From NCBI GenBank assembly GCA_016788295.1, contig JAEUSY010000026.1, forward strand, positions 64,020 through 128,019: a stretch of DNA of 64,000 nt, written 5' to 3'. The stretch's first letter is position 1, and every line of letters begins with the position of its first letter. Of the stretch, positions 35,037 through 54,871 are shown piece by piece. Under the pieces are notes generated by a model that did no database searches, was not told the DNA's origin, and was given only the letters and a program-made list of their open reading frames with translations. The position numbers and the translations under genes are program-made. Source of the DNA: Flavobacteriales bacterium. Its GTDB lineage: Bacteria > Bacteroidota > Bacteroidia > Flavobacteriales_F > PHOS-HE28.

Positions 35037-35067
35037 ACAAAGACCCCGGCAAGCGCCGGGGTCTTTG
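35037..35067. terminator. Bidirectional intrinsic terminator hairpin between convergent genes
   Basis: caaagaccccggc-aagc-gccggggtctttg: 12-bp GC-rich stem with tetraloop, flanked by A/T-rich sequence on both sides. A weaker hairpin lies at 34981-35008. Confidence 0.6.
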
Positions 35068-35085: not shown

Positions 35086-37050
35086 TTACTCCTTGCTGAA
35101 GGTGCGAACAATACGGCCTTCGCTGGTGATCGCCTCGAGCACATAGGTGCCAGTGGTCAATGCGGAAACATCGATCCGGTTGTTGCCCAAAGTCGTGTTG
35201 ATCACCGAGCGGCCGGCAGCGTCGATCACACGAACGAGCGTGTTGGCGGGAATGCCCGTCACGGTCAGTTGATCGATGGCAGGCACGGGGAACACGCACA
35301 CATCGGCACCGGGTGCTTCTGCCACGCTGGTCTGCAGTTCCTCGGTGATGGTGTGCAGGATATTGATGGCGGGATCCTCGATAACCTGCACGATGCCGGA
35401 TGGCCAGCGGATCGACATCTGGAGCACCTCTTCGTCCGTTCCGAGGCCGAAGTGCGCGTAGAGCGTGCTCATATAGCGGAAGCCATCACCGCTGCGGATC
35501 TCGCGGATCTGCGAGCCCGATGCAGTGGTGATGGTGATACGGGCACCGATCGCGCTCTTATTGCTCACCGTTCCGATCAGCCGCACACGCATCCAGTTGT
35601 TCTCATTGGGTTCGTTCAGGCGCAGTGTGCTGCCGTTCACGATGTCCAGGAAACCATCGTTGTTCAAGTCGGCCACAGGGCCGTTGCCGGGAACGGTGTT
35701 GTCCAGAGTGAACGTCATGTCGCCATTGTTTACCAGTATGCCACCACCACCATGGATGTCCAACCAGCCGTCGTTGTTGAAGTCGTGCGTGGTCCATTCA
35801 ATGCTCTGGCCCGTGAAGTTGTCGATGCCTGAACCGGCAGTGACATTCGTGAACGTGCTGTTGCCGTTGTTGCGCATCAGCTTGTGGTATCCACTGGAAC
35901 TGGCACCGATCAATACGTCCATGTCGCCATCGTTGTCGAAATCGCCCCAGGCACTGCTCCAGCTCTGGTGGCTGTCAGCGAAGCCGAGCGCCACGTTCAT
36001 TTCGGTGAAGGTGCCATCGCCGTTGTTGCGCATGATCTGGTCCACGGGATCGCAACCGCACTTGGCGATGAACAGGTCCTGGTCGCCATCGTTGTCCCAA
36101 TCGGTCCAGAGCGAACCGTAGTTGCCGCACGTGGGCCCATAGCCTCCCTGTGTGAAGGTGAGGTTGCCGGATCCATCGTTCACGAAGGCCACATTGGCGT
36201 CCACATCGTGGCAGGAAAAGCCGTCCAGATCGCCATCGTTCTCCAGGTCCACCATATTGGTGCGCTGGCAGAAGATGTAGGGGTTGCCAGGGAAGTTGAA
36301 CTGCGTGAAGCCACTGCCATCGCTCGTGGCGAACATGATGGTGGCACCCTGTCCACCGCCGTAGATCATGTCGTTCCAGCCGTTGCCATCCAAGTCACCT
36401 GCGGCAAAGCTCCATGAGGGGGTGTGCACGGCCGTGGTGGTCATGATCGTGGTGGTCTGGAACCCACCTGTGGCCAGTTGCTTCAGGATGGTGACCGCAT
36501 TGGCGCTCACACCCACGATATCATCGAGCCCATCGTTGTTCATGTCCAATGCCCCGATGCCACTTGTGGCAATTGACGTGGACCCGAAGTTGATCAGCTC
36601 GACCGGAGGCGTTGGCGGAGCCATTTCCAAAAGGCCGAAGGTGAAACCATTGGCCGTCCAGTAGTTGTCGAACACAATGGTGTAGGTGACACCAGCGGTC
36701 ACACTGAAGTTGCAGATGGATGAGTAGCCCGGTCCGGTGTCGTCATCGGCGGCGAGGCAGGTCAACGCACCACAATTGCCCGTGTAGACATGCACGCGGG
36801 TATCCACGGTCGGGTAGCCGCTGAGGTAGGAGGTCACCTGCATGGCGGTATCCACGGTGGCCGTGAATCTGTACCAATTGGCCATGCTCGAAGCGGCTCC
36901 GATGCAGAGCGGCGAAGCGGGTTGTGTGCCGTTGATCGCGGCAACGGTGTGCAGACCAATGCCGATGGGCAGGGCTGTGGCACAGGTGCTCTGGGCGCTT
37001 GCGGTGCCAAATGACAGCAGGGCCAGAGCAGGAAGTAACAGGTGTTTCAT
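35086..37050 (-). CDS. FG-GAP/VCBS-repeat beta-propeller protein with ASPIC/UnbV domain (CRTAC1 family) and T9SS C-terminal sorting domain
   Basis: Signal MKHLLLPALALLSFGTASAQ. Repeated DxDGDGxxD FG-GAP/VCBS motifs (WGDFDNDGDMDVLIG). UnbV_ASPIC block RVRLIGTVSNKSAIGARITITTASGSQIREIRSGDGFRYMS. T9SS CTD VCVFPVPAIDQLTV...GRIVRTFSKE. Confidence 0.85.
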   Translation of the reverse strand: MKHLLLPALALLSFGTASAQSTCATALPIGIGLHTVAAINGTQPASPLCIGAASSMANWYRFTATVDTAMQVTSYLSGYPTVDTRVHVYTGNCGALTCLAADDDTGPGYSSICNFSVTAGVTYTIVFDNYWTANGFTFGLLEMAPPTPPVELINFGSTSIATSGIGALDMNNDGLDDIVGVSANAVTILKQLATGGFQTTTIMTTTAVHTPSWSFAAGDLDGNGWNDMIYGGGQGATIMFATSDGSGFTQFNFPGNPYIFCQRTNMVDLENDGDLDGFSCHDVDANVAFVNDGSGNLTFTQGGYGPTCGNYGSLWTDWDNDGDQDLFIAKCGCDPVDQIMRNNGDGTFTEMNVALGFADSHQSWSSAWGDFDNDGDMDVLIGASSSGYHKLMRNNGNSTFTNVTAGSGIDNFTGQSIEWTTHDFNNDGWLDIHGGGGILVNNGDMTFTLDNTVPGNGPVADLNNDGFLDIVNGSTLRLNEPNENNWMRVRLIGTVSNKSAIGARITITTASGSQIREIRSGDGFRYMSTLYAHFGLGTDEEVLQMSIRWPSGIVQVIEDPAINILHTITEELQTSVAEAPGADVCVFPVPAIDQLTVTGIPANTLVRVIDAAGRSVINTTLGNNRIDVSALTTGTYVLEAITSEGRIVRTFSKE

Positions 37051-37079
37051 GGGTGTTTGGAGGTCAGGTTCCGGTCGGT

Positions 37080-38189
37080 TCAGTTGCAGGGTACAGGCAT
37101 CGAATTGATCCAAGTGGCGATCATGTCCACCGCCTCTTGGTGCACGATGGTCCGGCCCATCAGCGGCATGCGCACGGCTTCATCATTGCTCGACATACGG
37201 AAGTGCATCATGGAGCGCGCTGCATTCCCGCGTGCCACGATGTACGTCATGCTCGGTTCAATGGGGTCGTCCGGCTGAACACACACGCCCTGGTTCACGG
37301 GGTCGGCGTTCTCGTTCCACGCGAAGCGCATGGGCCGGTAGCTGCAGTGGCGCAGGTCGGTGTGACAATGGGCGCAGTTCATGTCCAGATAGGCCCGCAC
37401 ACGGTCATCTAAAGGTTTGGTCATATCGTCCCAGGCCACCACGGTATTGATGTTCTTCGGGTAGCCGGACTGCAGATAGCCTTGCTCCACCCACTTCGCC
37501 AATTGGTTCTTTACGCCATCGCCGAATGCGTATTGGCTGTTCATGTTCTGGGGCTTGGGACCGATGGGCGATGCCTCGTCGCTCACTTTGTGACAAGTGT
37601 GGCATTCGGCCTCAGCTGGTATGCGATAGCTAATGGTGCGCGTCACGCCGTTCTCGTCGGTCCACGTAACGGGGGTGTTGCTTCCGTTCAGGTCGAGATA
37701 GGCCTCGGTCTGCTCGGCATTCCACACATAATCGGCGAACTCCCATTGGCCGAAGCGTTTGAACAGCAATCGTGTTTCAATGATGCGGCGGGTGTTGCCC
37801 GGTTGCACACCATCGTAATAGAAGGTCTTGATAAGAACGGCACCGTCGGGGAAGTCCAGTATGTTGCCATCGCCGTTGTAGGTGGCCTTCACACCAGGTG
37901 GCATCCACACGAAGCGGAACTTGTGCGCGTAGTCGGTGAACAGCGGTGTGATGGGTTCGTAGGGAAGCACCGAGACCACGGGCCGCTGCTGGGCCATTGG
38001 GCCCTTGAAGAACTTGTAGGCGCTAAGGGTGGGGTAAGGCACGGTGGCCGGGTCGAACACCACGGCATCAGCCTCCGGCGTAATAACCTCATCGGGTGTA
38101 CCGGTGAGCGGTTCCTTGGTGCAGGCGGCCAATGCCACCAATGCGAGCAGGGTGATCAGTGCGAGCGGTCTCACGGAATGGCGGAGCAT
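37080..38189 (-). CDS. diheme c-type cytochrome lipoprotein (two CxxCH motifs; SO_2930-like family)
   Basis: Lipoprotein signal MLRHSVRPLALITLLALVALAAC. Two heme-binding motifs, AECHTCHK and NCAHCHTD, ~100 aa apart. 369 aa. Directly upstream (same strand, 29-nt gap) of the UnbV protein. Confidence 0.7.
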   Translation of the reverse strand: MLRHSVRPLALITLLALVALAACTKEPLTGTPDEVITPEADAVVFDPATVPYPTLSAYKFFKGPMAQQRPVVSVLPYEPITPLFTDYAHKFRFVWMPPGVKATYNGDGNILDFPDGAVLIKTFYYDGVQPGNTRRIIETRLLFKRFGQWEFADYVWNAEQTEAYLDLNGSNTPVTWTDENGVTRTISYRIPAEAECHTCHKVSDEASPIGPKPQNMNSQYAFGDGVKNQLAKWVEQGYLQSGYPKNINTVVAWDDMTKPLDDRVRAYLDMNCAHCHTDLRHCSYRPMRFAWNENADPVNQGVCVQPDDPIEPSMTYIVARGNAARSMMHFRMSSNDEAVRMPLMGRTIVHQEAVDMIATWINSMPVPCN

Positions 38190-38288
38190 GCGAAGGCATG
38201 AAGGTAACATGGGCTACCGATGGGAATGACGCCGGAAGGGCGGGTGGGCGTTGCTTTGCTTGTGGAGCATTCGTTCAGGATACACGAA

Positions 38289-38324
38289 GAAAAGAAGGCC
38301 GGGGTTGGGTCCCCGGCCTTCTTT
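38289..38324 (-). terminator. Intrinsic terminator hairpin between the two copies of the cytochrome/UnbV module
   Basis: aagaaggccgggg-ttgggt-ccccggccttctt: perfect 13-bp stem, followed on the minus strand by UUCUUCG. Confidence 0.5.
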
Positions 38325-38341
38325 GTTGTCAAGTTGGGTGC

Positions 38342-40375
38342 TTACTCCTTCGCGAAGCTGCGCTGTACAGGTCCGTCGTTGGTCTGCACCTCCACCACGT
38401 ACATGCCGGGTGCCAGACCGCCTACGGTGATGTGGTTTCCGTTCACCACGGCCTGCTTCACCAGCTTGCCGTTCAGGTCGAACACGCGAACGGGCTGGTT
38501 CACATTGTAGTCGCCGGAAATGAAGAGCAGATCGGCAGTGGGTACAGGGAACAGCACCAGGGGTTCCTTGGTCGCGTTGGTGATGCTGGTGTTGATGTCC
38601 TCCACAACGGTGAGCGTTCCATTAATGGAAGGGTTGTCGATGGTGTTAACGATGCCCGAGGGGAAACGCACGGTCACCTGCAGCACTTCCTCGTCCTGTC
38701 CCAGACCGAAGTGAGCGGCCAGGTAGCTCATGTAGCGGAATCCATCACCGCTGCGGATGTCGCGGATCTGCGTACCCGATGCCGTGGTGATGGTGACGCG
38801 GGCACCGATGGCGTTCTTGTTGCTCACTGTGCCTTGCGGTATGATGCGGATGTAGTTGTTGCCCACACCATTGTTGATCCGCGCCGTACCGCCGGTCTGG
38901 ATGTCCATGTAGCCGTCGTTGTCCAGGTCGCCCACGGCTCCCACATCGAAGCTTACTGGGTTCGGCGTGAAGGTCATGTCGCCGTTGTTCATCATGATGG
39001 TATTGCCACCGCCCATGATGTCCAGGTAGCCATCGTTGTTGAAGTCGTGCGTGATGTGCTCGATGTTGGTGCCTGTGAAGGTATCATAGCCGCTTCCGGC
39101 CGTCACATCAGTGAAGGTGTTGCCATCGTTGCGCATCAGCTTGTGGCCGCCGGCACTGAAGCTGCTGGCGCCCACCATCACGTCCATGTCGCCGTCATTG
39201 TCGAAGTCGCCCCAAGCAGCGCTCCAGGTCTGTGTGAAGTTGGCCAGGTTGTATTGTGCCGCCACCTCGGTGAACGTGCCATCACCATTGTTGCGGTGGA
39301 ACTGATCGGTGCTGGTCACTTGGTTGCCGCCGCGGCACTTGGCGATGAACATGTCCACATCGCCGTCACCGTCAATGTCCGTCCAGATGCTGCCGTAGTT
39401 GCCGCCGTTGGGCGTGTCGCCCAGACCACCTTGGTAGAAGGTGAAGGTTCCGGTGCCGTTGTTGATGAAGTACACGTTCGGTTGCACATCGTGGCAGCTG
39501 AAGGCGTCCAATAGGCCGTCGTTGTTAATGTCCACCATGTTGCTACGCTGGCAGAACACGTACTGGTTGTAGGTGGTGTCGTTGCTGAACCCGTTGCCAT
39601 CGGCATCGGCGAAGAGCAGGGTCACCTTGCTGCCACCCGCGATCAGCAGGTCGTTCCAGCCATTGCCGTCCAGGTCGCCGGCGCACAGGCTCCACGAGGG
39701 CGTGTTCGGGATCTGAGCGGTGGGGTAGGATACCGCAGAGAAGCCACCGCCGTTCTGCTGATAGGCGATAGTAACGCCCGTTGTATAGGCCACGTTGTCG
39801 ATGGTGGTGGTGTTGATACCCACCACATCATCCAGTCCATCATTGTTCATGTCCACCGCAGCACGCAGGGTGCCGGTCACAGGAACGGTCACGTTGGTGA
39901 AGGTGACTGCTTCAGAAAATGGTGGCCCCTCGGTCACAGAGAAGCTGAATCCGCGCGATTCCCAGCGGTTATCCCAAGCGATGTAGACGCTTTGTCCTGC
40001 TTGGAGGTTGAACAGGGCCAGGGAGAGGTAGTCGCTACCTGCATCGTCGTCGCCGTCGTAACAAGTAAGTGATCCACAGCTGCCGGTGTAAACATGCACA
40101 CGTGTGTCCAGACCGGGTGTCACGGCCACGTTCTCGGGCAGGTCACTGGTCACCGTCACGCTCACGTTCGCTGGAGCCGTGTACACGTACCATTCGCCGC
40201 GCGTAGCAGTGTTGCCACCAGTGGCGCATACCGGAAGAGGTACTTGAGGCCCGTCAATGGTGTCGATCACATAGGTGCCGGCCGTAATAGGGATCGCCGT
40301 TGCGCAGTTGTCCTGGGCGAGGGCCGGCAGTGAGCCCATGAGGCCCGCAATGAGCAGGGAGGAGAGTTTATTCAT
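38342..40375 (-). CDS. FG-GAP/VCBS-repeat beta-propeller protein with ASPIC/UnbV domain and T9SS CTD (paralog of 35086-37050)
   Basis: Same architecture as 35086-37050. Signal MNKLSSLLIAGLMGSLPALAQ; FG-GAP repeats; UnbV block RIIPQGTVSNKNAIGARVTITTASGTQIRDIRSGDGFRYMS; T9SS CTD LFPVPTADLLFISG...GPVQRSFAKE. Confidence 0.85.
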   Translation of the reverse strand: MNKLSSLLIAGLMGSLPALAQDNCATAIPITAGTYVIDTIDGPQVPLPVCATGGNTATRGEWYVYTAPANVSVTVTSDLPENVAVTPGLDTRVHVYTGSCGSLTCYDGDDDAGSDYLSLALFNLQAGQSVYIAWDNRWESRGFSFSVTEGPPFSEAVTFTNVTVPVTGTLRAAVDMNNDGLDDVVGINTTTIDNVAYTTGVTIAYQQNGGGFSAVSYPTAQIPNTPSWSLCAGDLDGNGWNDLLIAGGSKVTLLFADADGNGFSNDTTYNQYVFCQRSNMVDINNDGLLDAFSCHDVQPNVYFINNGTGTFTFYQGGLGDTPNGGNYGSIWTDIDGDGDVDMFIAKCRGGNQVTSTDQFHRNNGDGTFTEVAAQYNLANFTQTWSAAWGDFDNDGDMDVMVGASSFSAGGHKLMRNDGNTFTDVTAGSGYDTFTGTNIEHITHDFNNDGYLDIMGGGNTIMMNNGDMTFTPNPVSFDVGAVGDLDNDGYMDIQTGGTARINNGVGNNYIRIIPQGTVSNKNAIGARVTITTASGTQIRDIRSGDGFRYMSYLAAHFGLGQDEEVLQVTVRFPSGIVNTIDNPSINGTLTVVEDINTSITNATKEPLVLFPVPTADLLFISGDYNVNQPVRVFDLNGKLVKQAVVNGNHITVGGLAPGMYVVEVQTNDGPVQRSFAKE

Positions 40376-40383
40376 CGGTCGTT

Positions 40384-41478
40384 TCAGTTGCAGGTTTGGT
40401 TCAGGGACTGGATGTATTGTGAGATGAGTGCCACGCCTTCCGTGTGGATCATCGAACGCCCGATCAAAGGCATACGCACGGCCTCATCATTCGTGTTCAT
40501 GCGGTAGTGCACCATGCTGCGTGCCACGTTGCCCGGCGCGATGTTATAGGTCATGCTTGGCTCAACGGGTTCCTCAGGCTCCATGCAAATGCCTTGGTTG
40601 GCAGCCGCACCATTGGCATTGTATTCGAACCTTACCGCACGATAGCTGCATTGCCGTTCGGGCGCATGGCAGTGCGCACAGTTGGCATCCAAGTAGCTGC
40701 GTGCGCGCAAGGCCAATGGCTCCGTGGGGTCATCCCAAGCCACGGTGGTCATGATGTTCTTGGGGTAGCCCGGTTCCAGGAAGCCGTGCTCCACCCATTT
40801 CTTCAACTGGTTGCGCACCCCGTCCCGGTAGGCCAGGTCGGCGTTCAGGTTCTGCGGCTTGGGGCCAATGGGCACCGGAGTGTTGCCGATCTTGTGGCAC
40901 ATCTGGCACTCGCCTGCGCTGGGGATCCGGTAGCTGATGCTGCGGGTAGTGCCGTTCTCATCGGTCCAGGTCACCGGGGTGGTGCTGCCGTTCATGTCCA
41001 GAAAAGCCTCGGTCTGTTCGGCGTTCCACACGTAGTCGGCGAACTCCCACTGACCGTTCCGCTTGAAGAGGATACGCGTTTCGATGATGCGCCGGGTGTT
41101 GCCGGGTTGCACGCCATCATAGTAGAAGTTCTTGATCAGCACGCTGTTCTCGGGGAACTGCAGCACGTTGCCATCACCATTGTAGGTGGCCTTGGCTCCC
41201 GGGGGCATCCAGACAAAGCGTGCTTTCTCGGCGTAGTCCGTGAACAAGGCGCTGATCGGCTCGTATGGCAGAACCTCTGCCACTGGGCGTTGTGCTGCCA
41301 GGGGAAGTTTGAAGAAGCGATAAGCGCTCAGGGTCGGATAGGGCACCTGTGATGGGTCGAACACGACCTTTTCGCTGCTGTCGCCAAGACCCAGCGGGGC
41401 CACCTCGGTCTTGGGATCCTTTGTGCAGGAAAGCAGGACGGCAAGGGTAAACGTAAGGAAGAAGACGGTCTTTTTCAC
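40384..41478 (-). CDS. diheme c-type cytochrome lipoprotein (paralog of 37080-38189)
   Basis: GTG start 41478 gives MKKTVFFLTFTLAVLLSC (lipoprotein signal). CxxCH motifs GECQMCHK and NCAHCHAP. Highly similar to 37080-38189 throughout. 8-nt gap to the downstream UnbV paralog. Confidence 0.7.
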   Translation of the reverse strand: MKKTVFFLTFTLAVLLSCTKDPKTEVAPLGLGDSSEKVVFDPSQVPYPTLSAYRFFKLPLAAQRPVAEVLPYEPISALFTDYAEKARFVWMPPGAKATYNGDGNVLQFPENSVLIKNFYYDGVQPGNTRRIIETRILFKRNGQWEFADYVWNAEQTEAFLDMNGSTTPVTWTDENGTTRSISYRIPSAGECQMCHKIGNTPVPIGPKPQNLNADLAYRDGVRNQLKKWVEHGFLEPGYPKNIMTTVAWDDPTEPLALRARSYLDANCAHCHAPERQCSYRAVRFEYNANGAAANQGICMEPEEPVEPSMTYNIAPGNVARSMVHYRMNTNDEAVRMPLIGRSMIHTEGVALISQYIQSLNQTCN

Positions 41479-50840: not shown

Positions 50841-51986
50841 ATGCCTGCCGAGCCACGCAACCTGCATCCGCTGCCGTTCTCCCATTGGGGACTGGGTCTT
50901 CAGCGTCCGCTGTTGATCGCGGGGCCGTGCAGCGCCGAGAGCGAGGCCCAGGTGATGGCCGCCGCCCACAGGTTGGCCGCGCAGGGTAAGTCCCGTGTAT
51001 TCCGGGCAGGGTTGTGGAAACCGCGCACCCGTCCGGGTCATTTTGAAGGGGCTGGCACGGCCGCACTGCCTTGGCTGCAGCGCGTGAAGGCCGAAACAGG
51101 CCTGCTCACCATGACCGAGGTGGCCACGGCCGAGCATGTGCAGGCCGCGTTGGATGCGGGCATTGACATGCTGTGGATCGGTGCGCGCACCACGCCCAAT
51201 CCCTTCAGTGTGCAGGAGATCGCCGATGCACTGCGCGGAGTGGATATTCCTGTGTTGGTAAAGAACCCCATCAACCCCGACCTGCAATTGTGGATCGGTG
51301 CCCTGGAGCGGTTGGAGCATGCGGGCCTGAAACGCCTGGCCGCCATCCACCGCGGCTTCAGCTGGTTCGAGCGTACGCCCTACCGGAACAGCCCCATGTG
51401 GGAGTTCCCCATCCGGCTGAAGGCGGCCTTTCCGGAGTTGGAGATCGTGTGCGACCCCAGCCACATCGCGGGCGACCGCAACAAACTGGGAGCGGTGGCC
51501 CAGCAGGCCTTGGACCTGGGGCTCAGCGGATTGATGCTGGAAGTGCATCCCGACCCGGCCAACGCCTGCAGTGATGCTGAACAGCAGGTAACGCCCGAGG
51601 CCTATGGAGAGCTGATCGACAGCCTCATCTTCCGCCAGGCCCACCCCACGGCGCCCATGCGCGACCAGTTGGAGGAACTGCGTGATCTGATCGACCAACT
51701 GGACGAGGAGATCGCCCAAAAGCTGGGCACCCGCATGGACATTGCCGAGCGCATCGGTGACCACAAGCGGCTGCACCAGGTGGCCATTCTGCAACCCGAA
51801 CGTTGGGAGCGGATCATGCACCGGCAGCTGCGGTTGGCGGGCCATCTGGGGCTTAGCGAGGCCTTCGTAAAGGAGTTCATGGACGCCATCCATCGGGAGA
51901 GCATCCGTCGCCAGACCGCCGCCCAAGGGGACGCCAAGGAGACCGAAGGATCTCAAGCGTTGCGGGTGAACGGTGCCGGGGGATGA
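50841..51986 (+). CDS. aroG: bifunctional 3-deoxy-7-phosphoheptulonate synthase (type I-beta) / chorismate mutase (AroQ)
   Basis: DAHP/KDO8P synthase core (LIAGPCSAESEAQVMAAA...GARTTPNPFSVQEIA...CDPSHIAGDR) plus a C-terminal chorismate mutase helix bundle (LRDLIDQLDEEIAQKLGTRMDIAERIGDHK). Start at MPAEPRNL (ATG 50841). Confidence 0.85.
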   Translation: MPAEPRNLHPLPFSHWGLGLQRPLLIAGPCSAESEAQVMAAAHRLAAQGKSRVFRAGLWKPRTRPGHFEGAGTAALPWLQRVKAETGLLTMTEVATAEHVQAALDAGIDMLWIGARTTPNPFSVQEIADALRGVDIPVLVKNPINPDLQLWIGALERLEHAGLKRLAAIHRGFSWFERTPYRNSPMWEFPIRLKAAFPELEIVCDPSHIAGDRNKLGAVAQQALDLGLSGLMLEVHPDPANACSDAEQQVTPEAYGELIDSLIFRQAHPTAPMRDQLEELRDLIDQLDEEIAQKLGTRMDIAERIGDHKRLHQVAILQPERWERIMHRQLRLAGHLGLSEAFVKEFMDAIHRESIRRQTAAQGDAKETEGSQALRVNGAGG

Positions 51987-52051
51987 CCGCCACCGCCTAC
52001 CTTGCGGGCAACTGCAAACGGAACCACAACCACCTTTTCACGCAAACCCGT

Positions 52052-54871
52052 ATGAGGAAGAACCTTACCCTCGGAGCGTTGGCCCTACTGTTCGTCCCCG
52101 GCCTGGCCGTGGCACAGTTGAGCTTTACCAACGCCACACCCCTGATGAGCGCCAGCACAAGCGGCGGCTGCATGGGCGTGGTGGACATGAACGGCGATGG
52201 TCTTGACGACATCGCGAAGCTGAACAACTCGCGCACGGTGGTGGTGAACTACCAGAACGCGGACGGCAGCTTCACCACGGTGAACTACGGCAACATCAGC
52301 AACAGCGGTCAGTGGGGCTGGGCCATCGGCGACATCGACAACAACGGCCACAAGGACGTGGTGAGCGGTGGTAGCTACGACGGCGTGCACCACATGAACA
52401 TCCCGAGCATCGGCAGCAGTTCGGTCTCAAACCTGAACAACGGCAGCCTCTTCACCCAGTGCGTGAACATTGCCGACATCAACAACGATGGCCACAACGA
52501 TTATTGGTCCTGCCACGATGATGGTGCGCCCCGTCAGTGGTTGAACGATGGCAATGGCCTGCTCACCTACGCCGACATCATCACCTACACCACCAACCCG
52601 ACCAGTGACATGAGCGGGAACTATGGCAGCGTGTGGACCGATTTCGATAACGATGGTGACCTGGACCTCTATATCGCCAAGTGCCGCCAAGGCGTCAATG
52701 ACCCCAACGACCCCCGTCGTTGGAACCGCCTTTTCGTGAACAACGGCAACAACCAGTACACCGACCAGGCTGCGGCTTACGGTGTGCAGGTCCGTAACCA
52801 GAGCTGGACCGCCGATTTCGGTGACATCGACAACGATGGCGACTTCGATCTGATGTTGACCAACCACGATGCCACCATCCAACTGTTCGAGAACGATGGA
52901 ACGGGCAACTACACGGAGATCACGGCCGGCAGCGGTCTCGAATTTTCGGGCTTCATGCTCCAGAGCAAGTTCGTTGACTTCGACAATGATGGATTCGTGG
53001 ACATCCTCATCGCCGGTGGCGTGGAGTACTATTTCAAGAACGATGGTGATGGCACCTTCACCCGCATCACGGGCCTGTTCCCGTCCAACAAGGCCATGCA
53101 CAGCTTCGCCACCGGCGATCTGAATAACGATGGTTTCCAGGACGTGTTCGCCAACTATGGCAGCGGCTACATCGATGCCGATGCCAATAACCCGGACCGC
53201 CTTTGGATGAACAACGGCAATGACAACCACTGGTTCTCCGTTCGGTTGAAAGGCACCATCAGCAACCGCGACGCCATCGGCGCCCGCGTGACCATCACCG
53301 GTCCTTGGGGTACGCAGATCCGCGAGGTGCGCGCTGGTGAGAGCTATGGCATGGTGACCAGCTTTGCATGCAGCTTCGGATTGGGCACCAACACCACCAT
53401 TCCAACGATGACCATTCGTTGGCCCTCCGGTCTGGTGGAGACCTTCAACGATCTGGCCGTTGACCAGACCATCACGGTGATCGAGAACACCTGCATCAGC
53501 CCTGTGGCCGCTATCACTGCCGATGGTCCTTTCATTGTTTGTGGTAATGGCGATGCGGTTACGCTCACCGCCAATGCCGGATTCAACTACAGTTGGAGCA
53601 CCAGCGCGACCACCCAGAGCATTTCGGTCTCACAGGCCGGTAACTACAGCGTGACCATTGATGATGGACAAGGTTGCAGCGCCGTCACCAGTGTGTTCGT
53701 GGCCCAGGCCCCGGATGAGACCCCCACGGTTACCGTTGTCGGCGAGACCACCTTCTGCGAGGGCGGAACGGTGGAATTGACCTCAAGTGCGGCAGCTGCA
53801 TACAGCTGGAGCAATGGGGCAACTACCCAGAGCATTACGGTCACCCAAGGAGGCGATTACACGGTGACCATCGATGGTGCCTGTGGCGATTGGACCAGCA
53901 GCGTTGTAGCCTTGAGCGTTCTCGACACCCCGAGCGCGCCGGTGGCTGATGATGTGACGATCCCTGTTGCTGGCACCGCCGACCTCACGGCCACGGGCAG
54001 CAACATACTGTGGTACACCGCGGCTTCCGGTGGCTCCCCTGCTGCCAGCGGCAACAGTTGGACCACGCCCTTCGTGAGCAACACCACCTCGTTCTGGGTG
54101 GCCTCCTCCAACGTGTTTGGTGGCGGCACCTTCTATGGAGGCCGTACCTCCAACTCAACGAGCGGTCAGTTCCACACCAATGCGGACAATTACCAGCTCT
54201 TTACGGCATCCGAACCCTTCACCCTGCGTTCGGTGAAGGTGTATGCCAACGGTGCTGGTAACCGCACCATTGCAGTGATCGATCAGGGAACGGGAGCCAC
54301 GCTGTCCACCGGTGTGTTCAGCATCCCCAACGGCGAGAGCCGTGTTCAGCTCGATTTCGAGATCCCTGCCGGCGGACCTTACGGACTGCGTGTGGTGGGT
54401 GGCAATCCCCAGCTGTGGCGTGATGGTCTGGGCAGCAACCCCGCCTATCCGTACGCACTGGGTACCGTGGGTGCCATTACCAGCAGCAGCGTGGCCGGCA
54501 ACAACGCCACCGCCTACTACTACTTCTTCTACGATTGGGAAGTGGAGGTGCCGAGCACGGTGTGCGAAAGCGCCCGTGAGGAAGTGGTGGTGAATGTGGG
54601 GACCGTGGGTGTGAACGAAGCGGCCGCAGGGAACAGCATCGCTGTGTGGCCCAACCCGGCCACCGACAACCTCACCGTGGTACTGAACGGTGTTGACGGC
54701 GAGGTGAACGTGGACATGCTCGATCTCACTGGCCGTGTGGTCCTGGAGCGTGGAGCACAAGCCGCTGCCAAGCGCCTCGACCTCAACGTGAGCGCCCTGG
54801 CCGTTGGCGAGTACGTTGTGCGTGTGCGTCATAGTGCCGGTGTGAGCGTGCACCGCGTGGTGGTGCGCTGA
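52052..54871 (+). CDS. large FG-GAP/VCBS beta-propeller + ASPIC/UnbV + Ig-like repeats + conserved C-terminal module + T9SS CTD protein
   Basis: Signal MRKNLTLGALALLFVPGLAVAQ; FG-GAP repeats; UnbV block RLKGTISNRDAIGARVTITGPWGTQIREVRAGESYGMVTS. Then Ig-like repeats and a ~250-aa module (QFHTN...FTLRSVKVYANGAGNR...YYFFYDWEVE) homologous to the C-terminus of the S8 peptidase at 23079-25862. T9SS CTD IAVWPNPATDNLTVVL...VHRVVVR. Confidence 0.85.
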   Translation: MRKNLTLGALALLFVPGLAVAQLSFTNATPLMSASTSGGCMGVVDMNGDGLDDIAKLNNSRTVVVNYQNADGSFTTVNYGNISNSGQWGWAIGDIDNNGHKDVVSGGSYDGVHHMNIPSIGSSSVSNLNNGSLFTQCVNIADINNDGHNDYWSCHDDGAPRQWLNDGNGLLTYADIITYTTNPTSDMSGNYGSVWTDFDNDGDLDLYIAKCRQGVNDPNDPRRWNRLFVNNGNNQYTDQAAAYGVQVRNQSWTADFGDIDNDGDFDLMLTNHDATIQLFENDGTGNYTEITAGSGLEFSGFMLQSKFVDFDNDGFVDILIAGGVEYYFKNDGDGTFTRITGLFPSNKAMHSFATGDLNNDGFQDVFANYGSGYIDADANNPDRLWMNNGNDNHWFSVRLKGTISNRDAIGARVTITGPWGTQIREVRAGESYGMVTSFACSFGLGTNTTIPTMTIRWPSGLVETFNDLAVDQTITVIENTCISPVAAITADGPFIVCGNGDAVTLTANAGFNYSWSTSATTQSISVSQAGNYSVTIDDGQGCSAVTSVFVAQAPDETPTVTVVGETTFCEGGTVELTSSAAAAYSWSNGATTQSITVTQGGDYTVTIDGACGDWTSSVVALSVLDTPSAPVADDVTIPVAGTADLTATGSNILWYTAASGGSPAASGNSWTTPFVSNTTSFWVASSNVFGGGTFYGGRTSNSTSGQFHTNADNYQLFTASEPFTLRSVKVYANGAGNRTIAVIDQGTGATLSTGVFSIPNGESRVQLDFEIPAGGPYGLRVVGGNPQLWRDGLGSNPAYPYALGTVGAITSSSVAGNNATAYYYFFYDWEVEVPSTVCESAREEVVVNVGTVGVNEAAAGNSIAVWPNPATDNLTVVLNGVDGEVNVDMLDLTGRVVLERGAQAAAKRLDLNVSALAVGEYVVRVRHSAGVSVHRVVVR

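Follow-up and report, generated by a model that had tools for sequence, protein, structure and literature searches.

The window, the whole 64,000-nucleotide stretch of Flavobacteriales DNA analysed here, carries two ancient paralogous copies of a two-gene module, in which the gene for a predicted diheme c-type cytochrome of the SO2930 family is followed by that for a predicted Ca-binding β-propeller of the CRTAC1/ASPIC type. This pairing is not due to chance: the module is self-contained, and its pairs duplicate and pass on as units. We tentatively propose, from the sequences of the two proteins, that they may meet outside the cell as a redox pair, a reading that is possible but short of established.

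Two copies of the module in tandem

Four minus-strand genes form the array, in the order cytochrome, propeller, hairpin, cytochrome, propeller, hairpin. One copy consists of cytA (40384-41478; 364 residues, with a GTG start and a lipobox ending in ...LLSC18) and propA (38342-40375; a predicted secreted protein of 677 residues), separated by 8 nt; the other of cytB (37080-38189; 369 residues, a paralog of cytA with the same architecture) and propB (35086-37050; 654 residues, a paralog of propA with identical domain content, T9SS CTD included), separated by 29 nt. These reading frames and gaps agree with an earlier note on this DNA, which had proposed a tandem duplication of the pair; in pairwise alignments the cytochromes are 67% and the propellers 52% identical, making the two pairs true paralogous modules, and the duplication is ancient rather than recent. 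An independent metagenome assembly (Logan SRR12425352) contains an identical propA in the same gene order, with matching gene calls.

The hairpins that had been described between the copies and at the end of the array are both real, as read directly from the sequence of the minus strand. The one between the modules (38291-38324) has a 14-bp GC-rich stem, AAAGAAGGCCGGGG-ACCCAA-CCCCGGCCTTCTTT, followed by TCTTCG, and is a putative intrinsic terminator, partly detected by a generic terminator scan; the one at the array end (35038-35067) has a 13-bp GC-rich stem, CAAAGACCCCGGC-GCTT-GCCGGGGTCTTTG, and is a putative bidirectional terminator, common to the array and the convergent upstream gene. The tails of both are T-rich but interrupted. 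Since the count returned by the scan, whose rules do not cover Bacteroidota terminators, was not above that in shuffled sequences, we infer the terminator role of both hairpins from shape only.

A third UnbV paralog, which the earlier note had counted towards the same system, does exist (51983-54871, plus strand), but it is unpaired: the gene preceding it encodes a DAHP synthase/chorismate mutase and not a cytochrome. Unlike propA and propB, it has no N-terminal PPC-like domain; it is outside the cytochrome-propeller system.

A divergent subfamily of SO2930 cytochromes

The guess that the cytochromes belong to the SO2930 family is borne out by the NCBIfam model TIGR03806 ('SO2930 family diheme c-type cytochrome'), which matches both over its full length (positions 3-314 of 314; cytA, E 1.8e-87, 293.5 bits; cytB, E 3.1e-87, 292.7 bits). 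Both scores fall under the curated NCBI cutoff of 313.3 bits, where a Sphingomonas member reaches 363.8 bits; by this measure the window cytochromes thus form a divergent subfamily, which PGAP names 'hypothetical protein'. They have the same N-terminal β domain, two CxxCH motifs at a distance of about 76-79 residues, RMP Met, and C-terminal Cys as the TIGR03806 (SO2930/HNE_0200) family.

In this part of the window, the long reading frames contain two CxxCH motifs per cytochrome and no others: GECQMCHK and NCAHCHAP in cytA, AECHTCHK and NCAHCHTD in cytB (the earlier note had assigned them to the opposite copies). The first motif of cytA (C191-C194-H195) lies on the N-terminal, possibly P460/c'-β-like β domain, the second (C267-C270-H271) in a C-terminal helical domain resembling cytochrome c, which also has an invariant M336-P337. 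Exactly two such motifs, spaced 72-84 residues apart, occur in all 240 homologs from two deep clades (120/120 Flavobacteriales, 120/120 alphaproteobacterial), an invariance that speaks for heme binding at two heme-c sites in each of these predicted lipoproteins. The two clades also share some 35 fully conserved residues. The β domain of heme 1 carries dense invariant charged and aromatic residues; K85 and K116 are invariant, and are mere candidates for a P460-type Lys cross-link. Membership in the diheme cytochrome c peroxidase/MauG family was considered and rejected, as there is no sequence or fold match to CCP_MauG.

Propellers of the CRTAC1 type

All the domains previously ascribed to the propellers are found in both copies: FG-GAP_3 in five stretches (113-118 bits), FG-GAP, UnbV_ASPIC (62-64 bits), the FG-GAP_3 and UnbV_ASPIC scores lying above the Pfam thresholds, and Por_Secre_tail (PF18962; 34.3 and 30.7 bits, cutoff 27). 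The NCBIfam model for the T9SS type A CTD, TIGR04183, matches at 37.5 and 32.1 bits (cutoff 23). FG-GAP and UnbV_ASPIC are present, and the T9SS CTD is kept, in 30 of 30 sampled relatives. The AF2 model of propA (pLDDT 85.2) finds murine CRTAC1 (9etn, chain A) as its best PDB match in Foldseek, with an E-value of 8.4e-19 and a target-normalised TM of 0.61 over 538 columns; its N-terminus is a PPC-like β-sandwich with four invariant Cys, to which PPC profiles match weakly, in 3 of the 30 relatives. From domains and fold, each partner is thus predicted to be a CRTAC1/ASPIC-type Ca-binding β-propeller with a T9SS export domain. It shares the FG-GAP Ca-binding propeller and UnbV_ASPIC with vertebrate cartilage acidic protein 1 and the bacterial proteins named 'CRTAC1 family' or 'VCBS repeat-containing'; unlike CRTAC1, the window propellers have in addition the PPC-like disulfide-bonded domain and the T9SS CTD, and their genes are linked to that of a cytochrome. 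To our knowledge, no catalytic residue or cofactor has been assigned to CRTAC1/UnbV propellers.

Two predicted routes to the cell surface

With a CTD above threshold and an N-terminal signal peptide, as read from the sequence, the propellers are predicted T9SS type A cargo. For the cytochromes, the residues past the lipobox Cys, where the earlier note had suggested looking, hold a surface-export signal at the level of the family, in support of its extracellular reading. The experimentally defined Bacteroidota lipoprotein export signal (LES) is C-X-K-(D/E)2-X (PMC5080379); in the Flavobacteriales cytochromes, K occurs at +3 in 82/111 (74%), D/E at +4 in 98/111 (88%), and D/E at +5 in 39%. The window copies continue with CTKDPK in cytA and CTKEPLTG in cytB (again the reverse of the order given before); in both, the K is followed by a single acidic residue and Pro, one acidic residue fewer than the minimal K-(D/E)2 demands. 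Surface exposure of cytA and cytB, whose LES is thus partial, is accordingly less certain than that of the family at large.

Conservation of the pair

In 78 of the 80 related genome loci, the gene immediately downstream of the cytochrome encodes a propeller, so that the pairing is not unique to this genome. The flanks consist of housekeeping genes and vary by lineage (Flavobacterium, Chryseobacterium, marine Flavobacteriaceae); only the pair is constant. It is carried by hundreds of Flavobacteriales species, with an independently called example in the cultured Flavobacterium orientale. Tandem arrays recur, and each cytochrome type keeps its own propeller type. Assigning orthologs by cytochrome or by propeller gives the same answer for 40/45 genome pairs, rising to 36/36 among those with a strong signal, and the distance matrices of the two correlate at r = 0.85; shared ancestry and syntenic gene order in Flavobacterium confound all these statistics.

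Relatives with other partners

The canonical partner of TIGR03806 is a TIGR03805 β-helix, a pair known in Sphingomonas, Caulobacter, Erythrobacter, Novosphingobium, and Shewanella (SO2930/SO2931). The window pair is not an instance of it, as its partner is an FG-GAP/UnbV propeller; since the cytochrome family has a canonical partner, the sequences here point to a partner-swapped, order-reversed variant rather than a wholly unrecorded type of pairing. In both, a few nucleotides separate the gene of an uncharacterised lipoprotein from that of its large, β-rich, secreted partner. The window pair differs in having a CRTAC1-type propeller with a T9SS CTD in place of the NosD-like β-helix, in placing the cytochrome first, in having no adjoining TonB-dependent receptor, and, at the level of the family, in the Bacteroidota surface-export signal; the alphaproteobacterial order is TonB-dependent receptor, TIGR03805 β-helix (385-413 bits), SO2930 cytochrome in 4/4 loci. 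A literature search found no account of cytochrome-propeller or cytochrome-β-helix pairing; in Planctomycetota, CRTAC1-family genes are described within heme-c/propeller gene clusters (PMC12758564).

In one Pseudoalteromonas protein a propeller dehydrogenase and the diheme module are fused, with PKD, three CBM26, and a GSDH propeller preceding an SO2930-like diheme module; the propeller here is six-bladed GSDH, not FG-GAP. This is a direct example, within the SO2930 family, of the logic of extracellular dehydrogenase-cytochromes (fungal cellobiose dehydrogenase, bacterial GSDH-cytochrome fusions, and, as a further comparison, the extracellular PQQ pyranose dehydrogenase AA12-AA8-CBM1; PMC6881789), in which a secreted β-rich module that binds the substrate and acts as catalyst is joined to a β-sandwich, electron-carrying cytochrome. 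The window parts would follow this logic but are separate polypeptides with two predicted export routes and c-type hemes.

Proposed mechanism and alternatives

The earlier note had read the locus as a cell-envelope or extracellular system, which the export signals support; its wording 'redox or ligand-processing' was vague and still stands as inference. In the mechanism that we tentatively propose, the cytochrome would be flipped to the cell surface via the Bacteroidota lipoprotein export signal (C-x-K-D/E-D/E) and the propeller would reach it through T9SS. The propeller with its PPC-like domain may bind the substrate or act on it catalytically, a glycan or some other extracellular organic polymer being the likeliest candidate, and the cytochrome would serve the propeller as a dedicated electron relay. 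Heme 1 may provide a reactive or partner-facing site, while heme 2, in the class-I-like His/Met domain, would exchange electrons with an external acceptor or donor (O2, H2O2, a metal, another secreted enzyme). The cytochrome could play the same role for the NosD-like β-helix behind a TonB-dependent receptor in Alphaproteobacteria, and, in one Pseudoalteromonas protein, for the GSDH-type propeller to which it is fused, a sugar dehydrogenase bearing starch-binding modules; the two window copies probably differ in substrate specificity. Going further, a folded holo-c-type cytochrome exported by its LES might dock a T9SS-delivered CRTAC1-type propeller to form an unrecognised class of extracellular oxidoreductases, with P460-fold and His/Met hemes and an interchangeable β-propeller or β-helix substrate module; we regard this as rather doubtful. 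If true, it would provide the first biochemical role for the CRTAC1/ASPIC/UnbV family and extend heme-based extracellular redox chemistry to abundant aerobic polymer degraders.

Metal acquisition is one alternative, with the surface cytochrome reducing or handling Fe(III), Cu(II), or a chelate caught by the partner, and thereby feeding uptake, in Proteobacteria through the adjoining TonB-dependent receptor. This is unlikely: none of the alphaproteobacterial receptors scores above cutoff for a specific subfamily, be it for siderophores, heme, or copper, the genes adjoining these operons (TetR regulators, FAD/ALO oxidase, aldehyde dehydrogenases, glycosidase-like genes) include no Fur-type iron genes, no such receptor is conserved beside the Flavobacteriales pair, and the fusion partner bears starch-binding modules and a sugar dehydrogenase. 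Another alternative is small-molecule chemistry, in which a five-coordinate P460/c'-β-like heme would bind or convert NO, hydroxylamine, H2O2, or O2 for detoxification or sensing, heme 2 giving electrons and the propeller being merely an adhesin or scaffold. However, the fold similarity to cytochromes P460 and c'-β (PF16694; 2je3, 6hiu, 7s5o) is moderate, with no significant sequence match, the cytochrome β domain being roughly twice as elaborate and joined in one chain to a second heme domain of class-I-like type; no nitrogen-cycle genes are found nearby in the window or the 80 loci; and both the strict 1:1 partner gene and the change of partner between phyla with a constant cytochrome would be left unexplained, making this decidedly unlikely. 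A periplasmic maturase, oxidatively modifying a residue of the partner into a protein-derived cofactor before export in the manner of MauG or MbnH, would fit a diheme c-type protein encoded beside a β-rich partner, the several invariant Trp, Tyr, Cys, and His residues of the propeller family, the transit of both proteins through the periplasm, and the partial LES of the window cytochromes; we consider it very unlikely. That the genes are just adjacent and co-transcribed, as one locus (L006) with a cytochrome and no propeller might suggest, is strongly disfavoured by their adjacency across genera amid unrelated flanks, by the persistence of duplicated pairs as units, and by the large β-rich secreted protein that always adjoins, or is fused to, the same cytochrome family in other phyla.

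The redox pair that we favour would share with MtrC/OmcA of Shewanella and Geobacter a predicted cell-surface c-type cytochrome lipoprotein; it differs from them in having two hemes only, another fold, aerobic Flavobacteriales hosts, and no porin-cytochrome conduit or other outer-membrane electron conduit encoded near the pair. SO2931, the β-helix of the Shewanella pair, is itself listed with outer-surface multiheme cytochromes in Shewanella strain constructions.

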